Shown one piece after another: positions 7,760 through 43,185 of a DNA stretch of 52,473 nucleotides. The notes beneath the pieces were generated by a model. The model did no database searches, was not told the DNA's origin, and saw nothing but the letters and a program-made list of their open reading frames with translations. The translations under genes were made by a program, and so were the position numbers. How positions within the stretch are numbered: the first letter of the stretch is position 1; the number at the start of each line of letters is the position of its first letter. Source of the DNA: a virus (taxonomy: Duplodnaviria; Heunggongvirae; Uroviricota; Caudoviricetes); IMG/VR virus record IMGVR_UViG_2541047750_000003, positions 1 through 52,473 of that record; one strand, 5' to 3'.

Positions 7760-8064
7760 CGCATTTTCTCCTATGGTTAGAGTGAACGCGCGGGCGGGCA
7801 TCCCATTAGCATTAGATAGCAGTGACTGACCGCTCAACAGATCCCGCCGTTGCGTGATATTTGTTTTTCGCTTCGCAGCGACACCGGATTTTTAAAGAGC
7901 ATAAGGTAAGTGCCTTTTTGTGCCTTCCGTTATCTTTTTCCTTGCGTCTTTGCAAGTATGGCCTTACCTTGTCTGCAAGTTTACAAAATGGAATTTTAAA
8001 ATCAAGGCTTAAAATACACGTTTTGTGACTTGCATCAAACTTTTTGAGGTTATAGGGTAGCGAC
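7760..8064. promoter_or_regulatory. divergent immunity control region between cI and the minus-strand early operon
   Basis: 305-nt gap between divergent genes; contains TTTACAAAATGGA (7980-7992) and inverted AAGGTAAG/CTTACCTT arms; promoters and operators not resolved. Confidence 0.45.
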
Positions 8065-8742: not shown

Positions 8743-8835
8743 GCCTGGAAAACACCAAAACGTAAACAGAAAACGTTATTTATTATTTAAATATCAATGG
8801 CATATAAAATATTTTAAAAAAGTATACAAAATGGA

Positions 8836-8864
8836 TTGACTCGATGTTTTACGGGGCGTATATT
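8836..8864 (+). promoter_or_regulatory. sigma70-like promoter (pL-equivalent)
   Basis: TTGACT, 17-nt spacer, TATATT; TACAAAATGGA motif abuts the -35. Confidence 0.5.
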
Positions 8865-9118
8865 GCGAGTCAAAGGAAGGGCGCAGGTAACAAAAGCAAC
8901 TTCCTGGCACTTTAAAAATCAGGCTTAACACCTTGTCAACCGTGGAGTAACTCCCCGATGGGGGACCGAAAGCGGCACTGATAACAAGGCGCATGGGGTG
9001 TTTAAAGCGTTACATCCCCCACGAAACCGCACGCAAGGCGACGAGTCAGCTTGCTTGGAGTGAGCAAGGTCACGCCGGGAACGGCGATGATTGCGGGATT
9101 AGTTGAAAGATGTTAAGC

Positions 9119-16511: not shown

Positions 16512-16527
16512 TGTGATGAATGTCACA
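16512..16527. promoter_or_regulatory. CRP-consensus-like palindrome TGTGA-N6-TCACA
   Basis: tgtgatgaatgtcaca matches both CRP half-sites; lies between inverted TACAAAATGG motifs upstream of the NinG operon. Confidence 0.35.
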
Positions 16528-36859: not shown

Positions 36860-36871
36860 AAGGTGAATACT

Positions 36872-37552
36872 ATGATCCATGTTCGTACAGGACAATTTGC
36901 TGCTGTGGTGAACGGTAAGCGCTATGAGTTTAATCCTTGCTTTGCTGCGATGGCTAAAATCGGCAACGATAGTGAGCTTGTCGAATATTTCGCACTTATC
37001 CACGGCAGCAAATACCCTTCACGATTACCTACAGATCCAGACCTCCGCAATCGCATTATGGCACGGTGTTATGGTGAGATAGTGCAAACGTCAATGCGCA
37101 TCCTGAAATGTTGCTCAGACGACGAAACAGGCCCGTTATTGGGCAAATGTAGGTTTACTCCTTCTGGTAAATTGAGACTAAAACCCGGACTGATGCCTAC
37201 AAGTGATGTTATCACGCTGGCGCAACATTGCATGTACCACGGTTTAATTGGTGACGGGCCGGAAGAAGACACGGGCGCGATCCAGGAAGGCGAGTACAAG
37301 CCGACATTTGACGTACTTGAGTTTGTTTATTCTGCCGTTGCTCACCTGGGATTGTCAGAATCAGAAGCATGGAATATGACAATGACCGGATACAGGGCCG
37401 CAGTGCGCGCTAAAACGCCGCCAGACGAAAGAAACAAACAAAAACGACCAAATGTATTGCTTGATAAAAAGGCTTATGACGATGGAATGAGGGAGGCTAT
37501 GGAGATATTAAAAAGAATGGAAAATAGCGAGCAAGAAAAAGCCCGGGATTAG
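36872..37552 (+). CDS. tail assembly chaperone-like protein (226 aa)
   Basis: Position between major tail and tape measure genes; start refined to ATG (track ORF begins at GTG 36863). Confidence 0.4.
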   Translation: MIHVRTGQFAAVVNGKRYEFNPCFAAMAKIGNDSELVEYFALIHGSKYPSRLPTDPDLRNRIMARCYGEIVQTSMRILKCCSDDETGPLLGKCRFTPSGKLRLKPGLMPTSDVITLAQHCMYHGLIGDGPEEDTGAIQEGEYKPTFDVLEFVYSAVAHLGLSESEAWNMTMTGYRAAVRAKTPPDERNKQKRPNVLLDKKAYDDGMREAMEILKRMENSEQEKARD

Positions 37553-37568
37553 CCGGGCCTTTTTTTTA
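37541..37568. terminator. bidirectional terminator between convergent genes
   Basis: gcccgg-gattag-ccgggc flanked by A-run and T-run. Confidence 0.6.
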
Positions 37569-38063
37569 ATAACCTATATAATATTCGTGGTGTTTATCTA
37601 TTACTTTTTTATACATGTTAGCGCCTTCTTTGATGCACATGTTTTTGAAGTCAATTCTTACCCTATCTAATGCCATCCCGTCGGCAGCGGCATAAGCGTT
37701 ATTGTCGTGATCCTTTATCGCCCGTTCGGCAGCCATGATGGCAAGTCCGGCGACAAAGTTTTTAAATTCATTGTCATTTTCTTTGTTTTCAATAACAGCC
37801 ATCATGTGAGCGAAACTTTCACTGTGCGCTTTTATCATTTTAGCGTCACTCTTTTTGGTCCTGCTATCTTTATTTAAGATGAAATACTCCCAGTTAACGC
37901 CGTGCCTACCAATTGAAAAAAAGTTTACATTTGCCATTGTATATGCTTTTTCGTAGGCTGGATAAATAGCGTCGCACATCTTGCTGACTTCATTACTTGC
38001 ATTTGCATTGACCGCGAATATTGCCATGACCGCAGCTACCGCGACTTTTACTAACCGTTTCAT
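37566..38063 (-). CDS. secreted moron protein (165 aa)
   Basis: Signal peptide MKRLVKVAVAAVMAIFAVNANA; opposite strand to tail genes; GAGG RBS. Confidence 0.55.
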   Translation of the reverse strand: MKRLVKVAVAAVMAIFAVNANASNEVSKMCDAIYPAYEKAYTMANVNFFSIGRHGVNWEYFILNKDSRTKKSDAKMIKAHSESFAHMMAVIENKENDNEFKNFVAGLAIMAAERAIKDHDNNAYAAADGMALDRVRIDFKNMCIKEGANMYKKVIDKHHEYYIGY

Positions 38064-38075
38064 AACCCGCCTCGA

Positions 38076-38165
38076 TTAATTTTTGTTTTTAAGTGCTTTT
38101 AACATTTCTTCTATGAAGTCCGCATAGCGTTCATGTTCGTTGGGACGATAGTTTACGTTTTTCAT
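38076..38165 (-). CDS. small protein (29 aa) upstream of the secreted moron
   Basis: MKNVNYRPNEHERYADFIEEMLKALKNKN; stop 12 nt before downstream start. Confidence 0.25.
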   Translation of the reverse strand: MKNVNYRPNEHERYADFIEEMLKALKNKN

Positions 38166-38244
38166 TTTCTTATCCTCTTTTGCTTCCTCCGGTTTATCCG
38201 GTCCTTTCAAACCCCTTTACTCTATCCCTTTCCTTTAGTCTCTT

Positions 38245-38307
38245 TATACAAAATGGAGTCGTTGTAGCAAAGACATTTTGTATAAAATAGATACACAGAT
38301 CACAAAA
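38245..38307. promoter_or_regulatory. divergent regulatory region with inverted TATACAAAATG/CATTTTGTATA and the 14-mer CACAGATCACAAAA
   Basis: 11-bp inverted repeat arms at 38245-38255 and 38274-38284; 14-mer at 38294-38307 identical to 50344-50357. Confidence 0.5.
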
Positions 38308-38321
38308 GTGGAGTAACAATC

Positions 38322-40535
38322 ATGACAATAAATGTAGGCACGATTGAGTATACCGTTGACGCAAAAACCGAGCGGTTACTCGTAGCTCAACGCAAGGCGG
38401 AAGACTCGTTTGATAAAATCGAGCAAAGCGCTAAACGTACCGATAAATCAGTGCAGTCACTTAACACCACGATAAGTAATTTATCCAAAGCTGTGAACAT
38501 TGGAATGATGCTCATGGCTGCAAAAAAATTCCTGGAGATCGCAGATAACGTGAATCTGCTACGCGCCAGGGTGACGCGGCTATCAAGCGGCATTGCTGAC
38601 GCAAAATCGAATTTTGACGGGATTATTCAGATATCGAATCGCACAGGGATGAGTGTTCAAAGCACCGGGAAGCTGTGGGAAAGCCTAAAGGCCAGCCTGC
38701 AGGATACCAGCGCGACCAGTCAGCAGGTATTGCAGCTTACCGACTCACTCCAAAAAATAGGGCGTATCGGTGGAAGCTCTTCGGATGAAATGTCAAACGC
38801 GTTGCGCCAGTTAGGGCAGTCACTGACTGGCGGCATTGTTCGCGCGGAAGAATACAACTCTGTACTTGAAAATATGCCAGAAGTATGGCGACGCGTCGCT
38901 AAACAAATGGGGATCTCGATGGGTGAACTTCGCGCAAGAATGCTTGATGGTAAGCTCACCGCCGAGGATGTTACTAATTCAATTCTTGCTGGCGCAGAAG
39001 ACATAGAGAAGGATTTCGCAAAGCTGCCAACAACAACAGATCAGGCATTTAACGAGCTAAAAAACAACTTCGATCTGTTAATTGACACGCTAAACCAAAC
39101 GCTTGGAGTGTCTGATTTGGTGGTTACTGGTATACAGGCTGTTTCTAGTGAAGTTCAGATGTTATCCGGTTGGTTTAAGTCCCTGGCGAGCGATAGCACG
39201 TCATTAACTGATAAATTGTGGCTATTGGCTGGGGCGTTTGAGGGTATAGTGCCTGGGCTTAGTTTGTTTCGCGCTCAAGCGAAACAGGTTGGATGGTTTG
39301 ATGGCGGAGAACAGCCATTTGTTTCCACTCTCCCCACGGGGCAAGCTGGTGTAAGTCGCATAACATTTAAGCCTCAACCTGGTGGCAAGGGTAAGAAAGG
39401 CAAAGGTAAAAAATCCGGCAAATCAGAAGCCGAGCGCCTTGCGGAACAGGGTGTGCGCATTTCAGATGCATACAACGAAGATTCAGCAGCAATGCGCAAA
39501 GCGCTTGAATCACAAAAAGCCATAGATGCAGCCTTTAAAGCCGGGAAAATAACCATGCTTGAATACAAAGGTGCAATGAAGGGAATTGGTGATGAATTGC
39601 GCGAAACTCTGGCAGAAATTAACGACCCGATCAATAGGCTGCAAGAAAAATGGGACAAAATGATTCCATCACTGGATCAGAAGCGCGGCGAGCTGGACCC
39701 AATACAGCAGGCGCAAAATGAATGGACCATACGCAAGCAAATGCTGGAAGATCTTGGCGCTACCGAGCAATACATGAAGGAGCAAGAAAGAGCGCACGCA
39801 CAAGAAATGCTCTCCCTTGAATGGGAGCGATATAAAGCACAGTCAATGAGCTACAAACTATTGGGCGATACCGTTGATGCAATGGGAGGATCTGCAACAA
39901 ATGCGCTTGTGGGCCTGGTTAACGGCACTCAAAGTTGGCAGCAGGCGCTGGCTAACATTGGCAATACAATCCTTTCCTCCGTTATCGGTACACTTGTTCA
40001 AATGGGGGCTGAATGGGTTAAACAGCAATTGATCGGTGAGGCCGCCAGCGCAGCCGCAACAGCTAAAGCATTGGCAGAGGCTACCGCTTTGGGATCTGCG
40101 TGGGCCACTCCTGCATACCTGGCAAACGTTGCCACGATGGGCGGAGCGGCGACCGTGGGGGGAACGAGTCTTGCCACTGGTGTGGCTGGGGCTAAGGCGC
40201 TTGGCCTGGCTGGCGCTCGTTATAACGGCGGTGCGGTGGCTGCGGGCAGCCTCTATAAGGTCGGCGAACACGGTAAACCGGAGATCTTTCAGGCGAGCAA
40301 TGGGAGTCAGTACATGATTCCGGGTGACAACGGCAGGGTAATACCAAATCGCGACATTGGCGGTGCTGGTGGTGGTAGCGTTAGTATAAACGCGCCGATT
40401 AGTGTTTACCCCCAAAATGGATGGAGCGATGAGGATGCCAAAAAGCTACAACAGGACATGGAAAGGATCTGCATGGGCCTGATGCACCGCGAATCATCCA
40501 GACCAGGCGGAATGTTGCAACCTCGCAGGAAATAA
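38322..40535 (+). CDS. tail tape measure protein
   Basis: 737 aa; helical/coiled-coil N-terminal two-thirds, Gly/Ala-rich region (GGAATVGG...), position upstream of M-L-K-I-J-like genes. Confidence 0.75.
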   Translation: MTINVGTIEYTVDAKTERLLVAQRKAEDSFDKIEQSAKRTDKSVQSLNTTISNLSKAVNIGMMLMAAKKFLEIADNVNLLRARVTRLSSGIADAKSNFDGIIQISNRTGMSVQSTGKLWESLKASLQDTSATSQQVLQLTDSLQKIGRIGGSSSDEMSNALRQLGQSLTGGIVRAEEYNSVLENMPEVWRRVAKQMGISMGELRARMLDGKLTAEDVTNSILAGAEDIEKDFAKLPTTTDQAFNELKNNFDLLIDTLNQTLGVSDLVVTGIQAVSSEVQMLSGWFKSLASDSTSLTDKLWLLAGAFEGIVPGLSLFRAQAKQVGWFDGGEQPFVSTLPTGQAGVSRITFKPQPGGKGKKGKGKKSGKSEAERLAEQGVRISDAYNEDSAAMRKALESQKAIDAAFKAGKITMLEYKGAMKGIGDELRETLAEINDPINRLQEKWDKMIPSLDQKRGELDPIQQAQNEWTIRKQMLEDLGATEQYMKEQERAHAQEMLSLEWERYKAQSMSYKLLGDTVDAMGGSATNALVGLVNGTQSWQQALANIGNTILSSVIGTLVQMGAEWVKQQLIGEAASAAATAKALAEATALGSAWATPAYLANVATMGGAATVGGTSLATGVAGAKALGLAGARYNGGAVAAGSLYKVGEHGKPEIFQASNGSQYMIPGDNGRVIPNRDIGGAGGGSVSINAPISVYPQNGWSDEDAKKLQQDMERICMGLMHRESSRPGGMLQPRRK

Positions 40536-40676
40536 ACAAAACCCCGGCACAATGCCGGGGCTATTTTCGTATTTATAAACGACCATTTCGCGCGATACAC
40601 ACTCATCCGAAATTACCTGCCAAATATTCCAGATCTCCCGCAAGGTGAATTTATCGTCCTCCATATCCAGCCTCAC
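40494..40676 (-). CDS. questionable small ORF (60 aa)
   Basis: Track ORF overlapping the terminator and the 3-prime end of the tape measure gene; could be the third gene of the minus-strand cassette. Confidence 0.2.
   Translation of the reverse strand: MRLDMEDDKFTLREIWNIWQVISDECVSREMVVYKYENSPGIVPGFCLFPARLQHSAWSG
40542..40574. terminator. intrinsic terminator after tape measure gene
   Basis: ccccggc-acaat-gccgggg followed by T-rich tract. Confidence 0.6.
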
Positions 40677-40927
40677 TTATGCGCACCCTTCACCCCGCAT
40701 AACTTGTTGTAAGCGTGGTGCTCAACAATTAACCACACCTTCAAATCTTCACTGAACAGCCTCCAGTCGAGATTGATATCCATTTTGTAGCCATACCCAT
40801 CGCGTAACTTTTTGGGGCGCACCTCTTTATTTAAAAATGCTTTAAGCAGTTCCTTACCTTTCTTGATAATCCGGTCCTGTGCGTTTTTCTGTACTTTCAG
40901 GTTTTTGTCAATCGCCACCAGTTTCAT
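40673..40927 (-). CDS. RelE/ParE/YoeB-fold toxin-like protein (84 aa)
   Basis: Basic small protein; C-terminal YKMDINLDWRLFSEDLKVWLIVEHHAY resembles the toxin core strands; assignment tentative. Confidence 0.35.
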   Translation of the reverse strand: MKLVAIDKNLKVQKNAQDRIIKKGKELLKAFLNKEVRPKKLRDGYGYKMDINLDWRLFSEDLKVWLIVEHHAYNKLCGVKGAHK

Positions 40928-40944
40928 ATCTCACCCCATCATCC

Positions 40945-41100
40945 TTAGTTAAGTGCCTTCAGGAAGAAATCCCGGTATTCATCTTCCTTCGCATTCATCA
41001 TGAATTGACCGTATTTGAATGCGTCATCGAAACCCTTAACGATTGCTATTTCCACTTGTTCGAATGCGTTGTTCAGCATTACAACCACATAGCGTTTCAT
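40945..41100 (-). CDS. small protein (51 aa), possible partner of the toxin-like gene
   Basis: MKRYVVVMLNNAFEQVEIAIVKGFDDAFKYGQFMMNAKEDEYRDFFLKALN; GGAGG RBS; ends 17 nt before downstream start. Confidence 0.4.
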   Translation of the reverse strand: MKRYVVVMLNNAFEQVEIAIVKGFDDAFKYGQFMMNAKEDEYRDFFLKALN

Positions 41101-42056: not shown

Positions 42057-42260
42057 TTAAGGTAACTCCACTTCGTTAAATGTAACAAGCACCCCTTGAT
42101 TTTCTTTATTTATAATTATGAAGGCATTAATTGAAGGCAGACATCTTTCCACGTGGTAAACGTCACCAATATCTAAACTGTAATATTCTGTTAATTCTCT
42201 ATTGTTCCCTTTAGCAAAACCCGTAAACCTAACCTTTTTTTGACCGTCGTACTTTAACAT
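42057..42260 (-). CDS. hypothetical moron protein (67 aa)
   Basis: Track ORF in minus-strand island. Confidence 0.4.
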   Translation of the reverse strand: MLKYDGQKKVRFTGFAKGNNRELTEYYSLDIGDVYHVERCLPSINAFIIINKENQGVLVTFNEVELP

Positions 42261-42268
42261 ATACAGTC

Positions 42269-42517
42269 CTATAGGTTATCACGCAGATAATTAACGCCTT
42301 TGTCAGTGACGAATGAGTGATTAACCTGGTTTTCATCCGTCATGATGATGAATAACTTTTCCTGTAGGTATTTCGCTTTAGGGTACAGCGTTAAGCAGAC
42401 CTGGTACAGTATCCCGCGCTCAATCAGCAAATCAATAAATTCGTGTTCATGATAACCGATAAGGCGGGCGGCCTGTTTCAACGTGTACACATAATCCCCG
42501 TGATTACGCCGCGCCAT
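42269..42517 (-). CDS. hypothetical moron protein, possible HTH (82 aa)
   Basis: AAGGTGGA RBS; YTLKQAARLIGYHEHEFIDLLIERGIL is HTH-like. Confidence 0.45.
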   Translation of the reverse strand: MARRNHGDYVYTLKQAARLIGYHEHEFIDLLIERGILYQVCLTLYPKAKYLQEKLFIIMTDENQVNHSFVTDKGVNYLRDNL

Positions 42518-42526
42518 ACTTCCACC

Positions 42527-42877
42527 TTATTTATCGAAAGCAGATAGATTGTCTATACAGAAATCTTTTGCCGCTTTTTCGTATTCGTGTTTTGCTTCTG
42601 GATCGTCTGCCGGGAAACCTTTTGCGTGTATTTCACCAGGGCAAGACTGATCCATAGAATCAGCAAATTCAACATTGACGTTAAAGTTAATATCTTTCGG
42701 GTTCATCTCTTCCACCTTATCCGGTACATGGACCGGAGTAATATCAAAATCACGAGCGTTAGACCAACAGCGAAGTAATTCACAACCTTCATCACGCGCC
42801 GCAGCATATGTGTCAAATAGGCCCATGCGCTCCCATTCGCATTTATCAGTCCACACTTCTAAACTGTATTTTTGCAT
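42527..42877 (-). CDS. hypothetical moron protein (116 aa)
   Basis: GGGAGG RBS; acidic, Cys-containing. Confidence 0.45.
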   Translation of the reverse strand: MQKYSLEVWTDKCEWERMGLFDTYAAARDEGCELLRCWSNARDFDITPVHVPDKVEEMNPKDINFNVNVEFADSMDQSCPGEIHAKGFPADDPEAKHEYEKAAKDFCIDNLSAFDK

Positions 42878-43056
42878 TTTTTGTTAACCTCCCATTTGTC
42901 CCATTTGACAGGTTCGATCCGGTATCCCAAAAGGCGGTCATCCTCAGCAAGTAAAAGCGCGTCAACCAATGCTTCCCCCTCGTCGTCATACAGGGCGATA
43001 ACCTTTTCCCTACCGTCTGTCATGAATACCGTCAACTTCCATAGCTTTTCAGTCAT
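42859..43056 (-). CDS. hypothetical moron protein (65 aa)
   Basis: Start refined to MTEKLWKL after GGAGGTG RBS (track ORF 42859..43176). Confidence 0.4.
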   Translation of the reverse strand: MTEKLWKLTVFMTDGREKVIALYDDEGEALVDALLLAEDDRLLGYRIEPVKWDKWEVNKKCKNTV

Positions 43057-43132
43057 AACGCACCTCCGCGCCATTTTGTTAACTATGCTTCCGTTTGAGT
43101 AAAATATACATATTGTAAAAACCGCGATCAAT

Positions 43133-43167
43133 CCATTTTGGTATGATTTAGCGTGACGCAGATCACA
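43133..43167. promoter_or_regulatory. divergent regulatory region with CCATTTTGGTA and CAGATCACA elements
   Basis: Partial copies of the motifs seen at 38274-38307 and 50317-50357, ~20 nt upstream of the L-like ATG. Confidence 0.4.
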
Positions 43168-43185
43168 GAATGACAAGGTGAGAAA

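Follow-up and report, generated by a model that had tools for sequence, protein, structure and literature searches.

Within the 52,473-nucleotide (nt) stretch of viral DNA analysed here over its whole length (hereafter the window; IMG/VR record IMGVR_UViG_2541047750_000003), two minus-strand open reading frames (ORFs) lie inside the tail operon, between the plus-strand gene at the tail-assembly-chaperone position, DUF6246, and the tape measure gene. The larger, which we call the cargo gene, encodes 165 amino acids (aa; 37566-38063, N-terminus MKRLVKVAVAAVMAIFAVNANA|SNE), and the smaller, 12 nt upstream of its ATG, encodes 29 aa (38076-38165, sequence MKNVNYRPNEHERYADFIEEMLKALKNKN). Both had been placed here, with the same coordinates and sequences, by a preliminary description that read them as a moron, and we find that the region is very probably a moron encoding an exported protein. 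Morons are a main route of prophage-driven change in the host, and most of their products are uncharacterised. The features of the locus are as follows.

36863-37552, plus strand: DUF6246 gene at the tail-assembly-chaperone position, left flank (Pfam PF19759, E 3.9e-54)
37528-37565, both strands: two-way intrinsic terminator region, stem at 37541-37558 (GCCCGG-N6-CCGGGC)
37566-37997, minus strand: mature part of the cargo protein (143 aa + stop), hydrophilic, predicted helical bundle
37998-38063, minus strand: signal peptide codons (MKRLVKVAVAAVMAIFAVNANA), assigned by rule, with predicted signal peptidase I cleavage after ANA
38070-38073, minus strand: Shine-Dalgarno sequence of the cargo gene, GAGG, 6 nt before its ATG
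38076-38165, minus strand: 29-aa small ORF
38166-38236, minus strand: purine-rich predicted 5' leader, with a CCGG-AUAAA-CCGG hairpin at 38189-38201
38173-38177, minus strand: Shine-Dalgarno sequence of the small ORF, GAGGA, 7 nt before its ATG
38243-38255 (minus strand) and 38274-38286 (plus strand): arms of a 13-bp inverted repeat, CATTTTGTATAAA, within 38243-38287, each arm with a −10-like TATAAA
38298-38304, minus strand: TGTGATC box, resembling a CRP half-site and containing a Dam GATC, in 44 of 45 unique relatives
38322-40535, plus strand: tape measure gene, right flank (Pfam TMP_3, E 6.8e-52)

The terminator hairpin lies just 3' of the stop codon of the 165-aa ORF, between an A-run and a T-run, and its folding energies are −17.1 and −17.5 kcal/mol, one for each strand, so that the bidirectional terminator of the preliminary description is recovered at about −17 kcal/mol in either direction; ARNold terminators are annotated at the equivalent place in phages mEp515 and mEp010. 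The ribosome-binding site that it had named is likewise present, GAGG for the 165-aa ORF, and the 29-aa ORF has one of its own, GAGGA. The DUF6246 gene, whose homologue RefSeq names DUF6246 family protein, comes after the tail tube gene, and its final codons run into the terminator hairpin, with its stop codon in the loop. It is alone at the chaperone position, with no obvious −1 frameshift partner, and a gpT-like extension by frameshift within the inserted segment was rejected for want of a suitable plus-strand ORF. GC content is 0.39-0.40 across 37400-38450 versus 0.46-0.51 in the flanks.

Taxonomically, the window DNA matches the Escherichia coli phages mEp515, mEp554, mEp010, mEp044, mEp013 and MagusPhagus, and 28 of 5,426 complete E. 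coli genomes have prophages that match the region, among which only strain M15 has the same cargo gene. The prophage of M15 has a map collinear with that of the window and comprises, in order, a LexA-family repressor, ERF/SSB, a Q-like antiterminator, lysis, head and tail genes. By sequence, then, the window is an mEpimmI-type temperate E. coli siphophage. The mEpimmI phages are Nus-dependent non-lambdoid temperate coliphages described in 2025 (PMC11893012), and they are reported to be as frequent as lambdoid phages in human faecal samples. The site between chaperone and tape measure genes is not discussed in PMC11893012, and the annotation of the archetype of the group, mEp021, names the product at the homologous site (gp63) a hypothetical protein and omits the small ORF. 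For comparison of the site, 76 IMG/VR loci were gathered via DUF6246 and supplemented with loci from phages and genomes, and the positions of the two flanking genes were determined at every locus; close relatives (n = 58) have a DUF6246 identity of at least 68%, and distant relatives one of at most 41%.

All 58 close relatives have a gap of 625-1315 nt between the two genes that holds minus-strand ORFs. In the distant relatives the tape measure gene mostly starts 34 nt after DUF6246 (as at L062-L067), with no insert, and one distant locus (L060) has a gap of 1485 nt with no convincing ORFs. Clustering separated the proteins encoded at the site into at least eight unrelated cargo families, nearly all of which have a signal peptide, a lipobox or a membrane segment, and the commonest alternative to the studied cargo is a lipoprotein of the VasI/TagO family, which is associated with the type VI secretion system (T6SS). 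The families and the loci that hold them are these.

219-aa lipoprotein with a VasI/TagO domain, 18 loci: Pfam VasI E 1.7e-15, phrog_1848; for example L003 2361-3020 (E. coli MLI107)
137-139-aa secreted protein, 17 loci: includes mEp021 gp63
124-aa lipoprotein, 12 loci: phrog_18614, weak BamE/OsmE-like matches, often after VasI/TagO cargo
100-107-aa membrane protein, 10 loci: with a 35-aa partner in 9 of 10
160-167-aa family, the cargo studied here, 7 loci
106-aa protein, 7 loci: the sole family without an obvious export signal
116-119-aa secreted protein, 6 loci
Singletons: for example a 245-aa lipoprotein

Cargo genes may also stack, as at one locus with the 160-, 106- and 124-aa types in a row. 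Pairwise blastn alignments place the left breakpoint of all cassette types at 37560-37569, just past the terminator at the cargo stop codon, and the right breakpoint at one of several positions: at 38241, where the leader and small ORF are absent (mEp013); at 38065, on the cargo ATG (mEp554, membrane cargo); at 38058 or 38041, inside the signal peptide and a few codons from its start (mEp515; VasI-type loci); or at 37997, the exact end of the 22-codon signal peptide (mEp010). The VasI-type loci without the small ORF retain 38226-38304, which holds the promoter core, and 38041-38074, which holds the Shine-Dalgarno sequence and first codons, so that the 151-nt segment with the leader and small ORF (38075-38225), missing in relatives such as L013, behaves as an optional module. 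The extra or different DNA in collinear relatives, the deviant base composition and the region's own terminator are the marks of a moron, and the preliminary reading as such holds up on the lower GC content, the absence from most distant relatives and the replacement by unrelated cargo at sharp, common breakpoints. On these alignments the site is a recombination hotspot, at which the terminator and the modules for promoter, small ORF and signal peptide form the conserved anchors and the cargo is exchanged.

The export signal itself is common to unrelated secreted cargo families. In hhalign comparisons the homology of the 165-aa family is restricted to residues 1-34 for the 137-aa family and to residues 1-28 for the 119-aa family (E 1e-6 to 2e-9), with nothing common after the signal peptide, and the lipoprotein cargo begins with the same MKRLAKVA... 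and ends in a lipobox, as found in the VasI-like and 124-aa families. At the cleavage region, NANA is lengthened to NANANA in two proteins of different cargo families (P0003, L092 3001-3504; and L024), which is consistent with slippage on an AATGCA AATGCA repeat.

The 165-aa protein is itself very rare. A search of 5.8 billion protein clusters gave six relatives, all from E. coli, three of them at 87-99% and three at ~50% identity, and a profile search of 1.84 billion representatives returned two representatives, both of the family itself, and thereby added one further member at ~39% identity. With about seven related sequences among billions of proteins, the family is by these searches an orphan, and the homology check suggested by the preliminary description (BLAST or HHpred) accordingly led to the protein's own family alone. 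Nothing significant was found for it in Pfam, PHROGs, NCBIfam or PADLOC, a sequence-profile search of the PDB was empty, and every copy with readable context occupies the site between DUF6246 and the tape measure gene. Evolutionarily, the homologues (39-99% identity) retain full length, the signal peptide and 68 invariant columns, including two cysteines (C30 and C143 of the precursor), and the ratio of non-synonymous to synonymous substitution rates (dN/dS) between unsaturated homologue pairs is 0.13-0.42. The highest of these values comes from the window and its M15 copy (93% identical), because their differences gather at 37780-37850 (residues ~73-95), in one predicted helix (SDAKMIKAHSESFAHMMAVIENKEN versus GDAEMIKAHGESFAFVMAAAENKQN); this helix may mark a variable interaction surface.

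Functionally, the clear signal peptide claimed in the preliminary description stands, all features of a Sec/signal peptidase I substrate being present by rule: an n-region MKRLVK of charge +3, a core of 12 hydrophobic residues (VAVAAVMAIFAV), and a c-region NANA with alanine at −3 and −1 and a predicted cut at N-A-N-A|S. The protein has no second hydrophobic segment, its mature part has a grand average of hydropathy of −0.51 and an isoelectric point of ~7, and it has no lipobox ([LVI][ASTVI][GAS]C) and no cysteine before residue 30. AlphaFold2, run on the shallow seven-sequence alignment, predicts a four-to-five-helix bundle (mean predicted local distance difference test score, pLDDT, 70; predicted template modelling score, pTM, 0.74), for which Foldseek gave no meaningful match in the PDB and BFVD. 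We infer that Sec export and a signal peptidase I cut after ANA22 would yield a soluble, helical, periplasmic protein of 143 aa, probably disulfide-bonded; the sister cargo families, with the same signal peptide or its lipobox version, lend further support to export.

Upstream of the cargo gene, the small ORF (27-29 aa) occurs in 34 of the 58 close relatives, whatever the cargo, and is confined to mEpimmI phages within the phage collection (tblastn). A degenerate DNA pattern for it had no match in 185,579 species representative genomes and matched 18 IMG/VR contigs, all of which carry the same site and had already been found through DUF6246. It is called as a coding sequence in mEp515 and by the Logan gene caller, and its product is hydrophilic, without a signal peptide. 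Its variable sites fall 5, 2 and 16 at codon positions 1, 2 and 3, and the ratio of non-synonymous to synonymous polymorphism (pN/pS) is 0.06 at a pS of 0.45, a pattern that points to selection on the peptide itself. Judged by this conservation, the 29-aa ORF is a genuine, previously unannotated small gene. The preliminary description was thus right that a 29-aa ORF exists upstream; what calls for refinement is its label as an upstream ORF, since it behaves as an independent conserved gene and not as a simple leader. It could still be argued that the ORF is merely a regulatory leader peptide for translation or transcription of the cargo, with no protein function, and in the window its stop codon directly precedes the Shine-Dalgarno sequence of the cargo gene, an arrangement that would allow translational coupling; yet purifying selection acts over its whole length, it accompanies every cargo type, membrane proteins and lipoproteins included, its spacing to the cargo start varies and reaches ~66 nt in the 27-aa variants, the same cargo families do without it in 24 of the 58 loci, and its C-terminal end and stop context vary, unlike those of arrest peptides, all of which makes the regulatory explanation improbable.

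The leader in front of the small ORF has no Rfam match, and in its CCGG-AUAAA-CCGG hairpin the stem is invariant and the loop variable. An early candidate, based on seven sequences, that the leader is a hyper-conserved RNA element was dropped, because over 29 unique sequences its diversity of 0.17 is close to the 0.23 at the third codon positions of the small ORF, so that its conservation is not exceptional. Seven GGA motifs, which could be read as CsrA sites, occur in the purine-rich 71 nt and are not clearly above what composition gives.

The divergent regulatory region that the preliminary description placed beside the cassette is there as well: all 45 unique sequences, irrespective of the cargo and of the type of tape measure, keep a core of ~75 bp with the consensus TGTGATC-N7-CTATTTTATACAAAATG-N17-CATTTTGTATAA. 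On the minus strand it contains a predicted moron promoter, TTTGCT (38266-38271)-17-TATAAA (38243-38248), with a predicted start near 38236, and on the plus strand, ahead of the tape measure gene, the other arm of the inverted repeat mirrors this −10, where the accompanying −35 is poor. The repeat folds at −14 kcal/mol, and in relatives shows one compensatory double change (L008), two wobble-compatible and two disruptive changes, which is not decisive for an RNA hairpin; with the −10 in the right arm, the hairpin would fall outside the moron transcript. The exact palindrome pattern had no match in the 185,579 species representative genomes.

At 8820-8866, downstream of the repressor gene, the register is the same as in the moron promoter (TATACAAAATG + 2 nt + 6-mer + 17 + hexamer), and the motif directly adjoins a strong promoter-like site, TTGACT-17-TATATT. 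The 11-nt motif concerned, CATTTTGTATA (reverse TATACAAAATG), has 11 matches as a 13-mer in the window versus 3.5 expected, at intergenic or regulatory junctions, the motif positions being 1039, 5136, 7980, 8823, 9502, 12938, 16492, 16560, 38245, 38274, 50288 and 50319. Its possible identities are a promoter or UP element specific to the phage, or the binding site of a regulator. A boxA-like repeat follows the 8820-8866 site at 8905-8928 and occurs also at 7989-8012, and these regions are probably nutR1 and nutL.

The TGTGATC box keeps a fixed 56-nt offset to the −10, so that it is centred ~60.5 nt upstream of the predicted start, as in a class I CRP site (reference: TGTGA-N6-TCACA near −61.5), with a right half that is weak (1-3 of 5 positions matching). 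Sites resembling the CRP consensus (TGTGA-N6-TCACA, at most one mismatch) lie at 8024-8039, 16512-16527, 43152-43167 and 50339-50354 (compare 38289-38304); those at 16512 (perfect), 43152 and 50339 match at 9-10 of 10 positions, and the CRP-like sites sit in regulatory gaps beside the CATTTTGTATA motif. Only three exact copies of the 9-mer CAGATCACA exist in the window (38296, 43159 and 50346), each just upstream of a plus-strand tail gene that comes after a minus-strand island, and the copies at 43159 and 50346 belong to the near-consensus sites at 43152 and 50339.

Taken together, these features suggest an independent, backwards transcription unit inserted between the DUF6246 and tape measure genes, which would consist of the divergent promoter region, an optional leader with the 29-aa gene, the cargo gene and the two-way terminator. 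From position and analogy, we posit that the cassette is transcribed in the lysogen from its own weak sigma-70-type promoter, and that during lytic growth the opposing, antiterminated late transcription would silence it; its antisense orientation to the late operon and its insulation by the terminator suit expression when the late genes are silent. The periplasmic 143-aa protein would then guard the lysogen, most likely by hindering superinfection at a stage that follows adsorption, either in the periplasm or as the DNA enters, and the 29-aa product would be a separate cytoplasmic small protein, co-transcribed with the cargo. This account as a whole, a moron cassette with a protective or excluding periplasmic product expressed from the prophage, is put forward tentatively, at a little short of an even chance, and that the 165-aa protein in particular serves superinfection exclusion or defence is possible, with somewhat less confidence again.

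Several results weigh against this account. The promoter matches its consensus weakly, and a scanner for consensus promoters, whose rule demands a T at −7, therefore made no call in the divergent region. The 165-aa protein has no homologue of known function, its predicted fold is of only moderate confidence (pLDDT 70) and without an informative match, and the PADLOC defence models gave no match for the cargo protein, the small ORF product or six sister cargo proteins. Moreover, cargo and receptor type are unlinked, the 138-aa family occurring, by the receptor assignments of PMC11893012, both in mEp021, which uses OmpA, and in mEp010, which uses LamB; this argues against a receptor blocker and leaves a post-adsorption or periplasmic step, or a function that does not concern phages. 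Finally, the same type of tape measure is found with different cargo, so that no comparative signal links the cargo to a particular phage target. Co-variation of cargo with receptor or tape measure type had been considered and was dropped for want of a consistent pattern. Within the 165-aa family, three subfamilies each adjoin a different tape measure type, a pairing that may be mere linkage.

The other explanations differ in what the cassette would be for and when it would act. The cargo could be a factor of lysogenic conversion or host fitness, helping with envelope stress, serum or bile resistance or colonisation, or serving as an orphan immunity protein against a T6SS effector, colicin or lysozyme. 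A small, soluble, helical periplasmic protein with a probable disulfide would suit such a role, the alternative cargo includes VasI/TagO-family T6SS-associated and weakly BamE/OsmE-like lipoproteins, the hosts are gut E. coli, and the lambda morons lom and bor are known to aid host fitness (PMC3594210). Against this, our searches found no likeness to immunity, inhibitor or virulence families, and the extreme turnover of cargo at a single site is more typical of loci in an arms race, that is, of defence; we regard conversion of this kind as rather unlikely, and give another envelope fitness or immunity function of the 165-aa protein about the same, modest chance. Distinctly less probable is that the cassette works in the lytic cycle, its product being made early after infection or induction and changing the envelope so that sibling virions can no longer adsorb or inject, or shielding progeny from debris, as Llp of T5 does. 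In its favour, the control region holds the CATTTTGTATA motif, whose recurrence at early and regulatory junctions, with one copy by the TTGACT-17-TATATT site near the repressor gene, suggests that the cassette promoter may belong to a phage-controlled regulon, and the cassette shares the palindrome, back to back, with what may be a promoter reading rightwards into the tape measure gene; the antisense position to a strongly transcribed late operon and the two-way terminator count against it. The notion that the 165-aa ORF is a chance ORF or the remnant of a decaying pseudogene, to which the database annotation as a mere "hypothetical protein" might lend some colour, has a negligible probability: length, invariant columns, both cysteines and signal peptide persist down to 39% identity, ribosome-binding site and terminator are good, and by the substitution ratios of the cargo (dN/dS 0.13-0.42) and the small ORF (pN/pS 0.06) both are real genes.

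Beyond guarding the lysogen, we also considered a more far-reaching form of the same proposal, which we hold to be doubtful, a shade less probable than host conversion: that the site is a dedicated exchange platform, with a fixed control module (back-to-back promoters in a palindrome and a CRP-like box), the cytoplasmic 29-aa protein and a common export signal onto which unrelated mature domains are swapped by recombination, that the 165-aa proteins form a class of exclusion protein not described before, soluble and periplasmic, which acts on the incoming tail or tape measure while the DNA enters, and that the small protein is its regulator or cofactor.

Three further minus-strand islands interrupt the tail operon, one at 49974-50222 with a lipoprotein gene that is taken up below and the others at 40673-41100, after the tape measure gene (an 84-aa ParE_like gene and a 51-aa ORF), and at 42057-43176 (a KilAC-type antirepressor-like cluster). 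Outside these, a homologue of 29417-30808 in the M15 prophage (L089 30297-31667) is named "anti-CBASS protein Acb1 family protein" in RefSeq; its position suggests a portal or head gene, and the Acb1 name may therefore be an annotation artefact or reflect a fused domain.

A moron in a tail operon at the position of HK97 gp15 is of a known kind, and nothing here overturns expectations. What is new is an orphan, very rare and site-faithful 165-aa family, a conserved and unannotated 29-aa gene, a hotspot of mEpimmI phages with almost exclusively envelope cargo, and the use of one signal peptide on unrelated mature domains. A hypothetical gene thereby gains a context, since mEpimmI phages have one hotspot within the tail operon and almost all cargo there is exported or bound to a membrane, and at least eight candidate envelope-acting families are offered as testable leads for exclusion or defence screens, for which a plasmid assay exists in this phage group. 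The signal peptide common to unrelated mature domains illustrates how modular exchange creates new exported proteins, and if it is true that the periplasmic protein blocks DNA entry, a soluble-protein mechanism would be added to a field of mostly membrane proteins and lipoproteins.

[quoted passage not shown] The present cassette resembles it in genomic position, in belonging to a temperate E. coli siphophage, in being an independent transcription unit and in the envelope location of its product, but gp15 is a small inner-membrane protein related to YebO, whereas the product here is predicted to be a cleaved, soluble, periplasmic, helical protein of 143 aa, and the present site is a multi-family hotspot with an extra conserved small gene. 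Homology of the 165-aa protein to YebO was not found in Pfam or NCBIfam, and its N-terminal segment has a cleavage motif and its mature part is hydrophilic. The lipoproteins Lpp021 and Lpp010 of mEpimmI phages exclude superinfecting phages, as shown experimentally, and their type matches the outer-membrane receptor (PMC11893012). Like them, Cor of phi80 and N15, and Llp of T5, the 165-aa protein is a small exported phage protein whose gene runs backwards in the tail cluster, but those proteins have a lipobox and a type that tracks the receptor, whereas the 165-aa protein has no lipobox and the cargo at its site does not track receptor type. The window has a probable Lpp/Cor-like exclusion lipoprotein of the mEpimmI type in the 82-aa lipoprotein (MKNMLKVVLFAAAVALTGC...) encoded at 49974-50222 on the minus strand, after the tail-fibre gene. 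Because PMC11893012 credits receptor-level exclusion to Lpp lipoproteins, whose genes lie in another part of the tail cluster, we count this division as support for a post-adsorption role of the cargo. As neither the defining features of gp15/YebO nor those of the exclusion lipoproteins appear at the sequence level, we regard the 165-aa protein as an analogue and not a member of these groups.

In its organisation the site recalls the defence and accessory hotspots of temperate phages and satellites, such as P2 and P4 (Rousset et al. 2022, as cited in PMC10884400), where conserved flanks surround interchangeable, unrelated cargo at a fixed position. It differs from these hotspots in that the cargo is nearly all targeted to the envelope and matches none of the known defence models in PADLOC, and in that a promoter palindrome, a small ORF and a signal peptide all belong to the conserved anchor. 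Although their mature domains are unrelated to the 165-aa family by hhalign, the hypothetical proteins mEp021 gp63, mEp515 gp83 and mEp010 gp97 share with it the same site, the promoter core, the small ORF and a signal peptide of the MKRL...NANA type.

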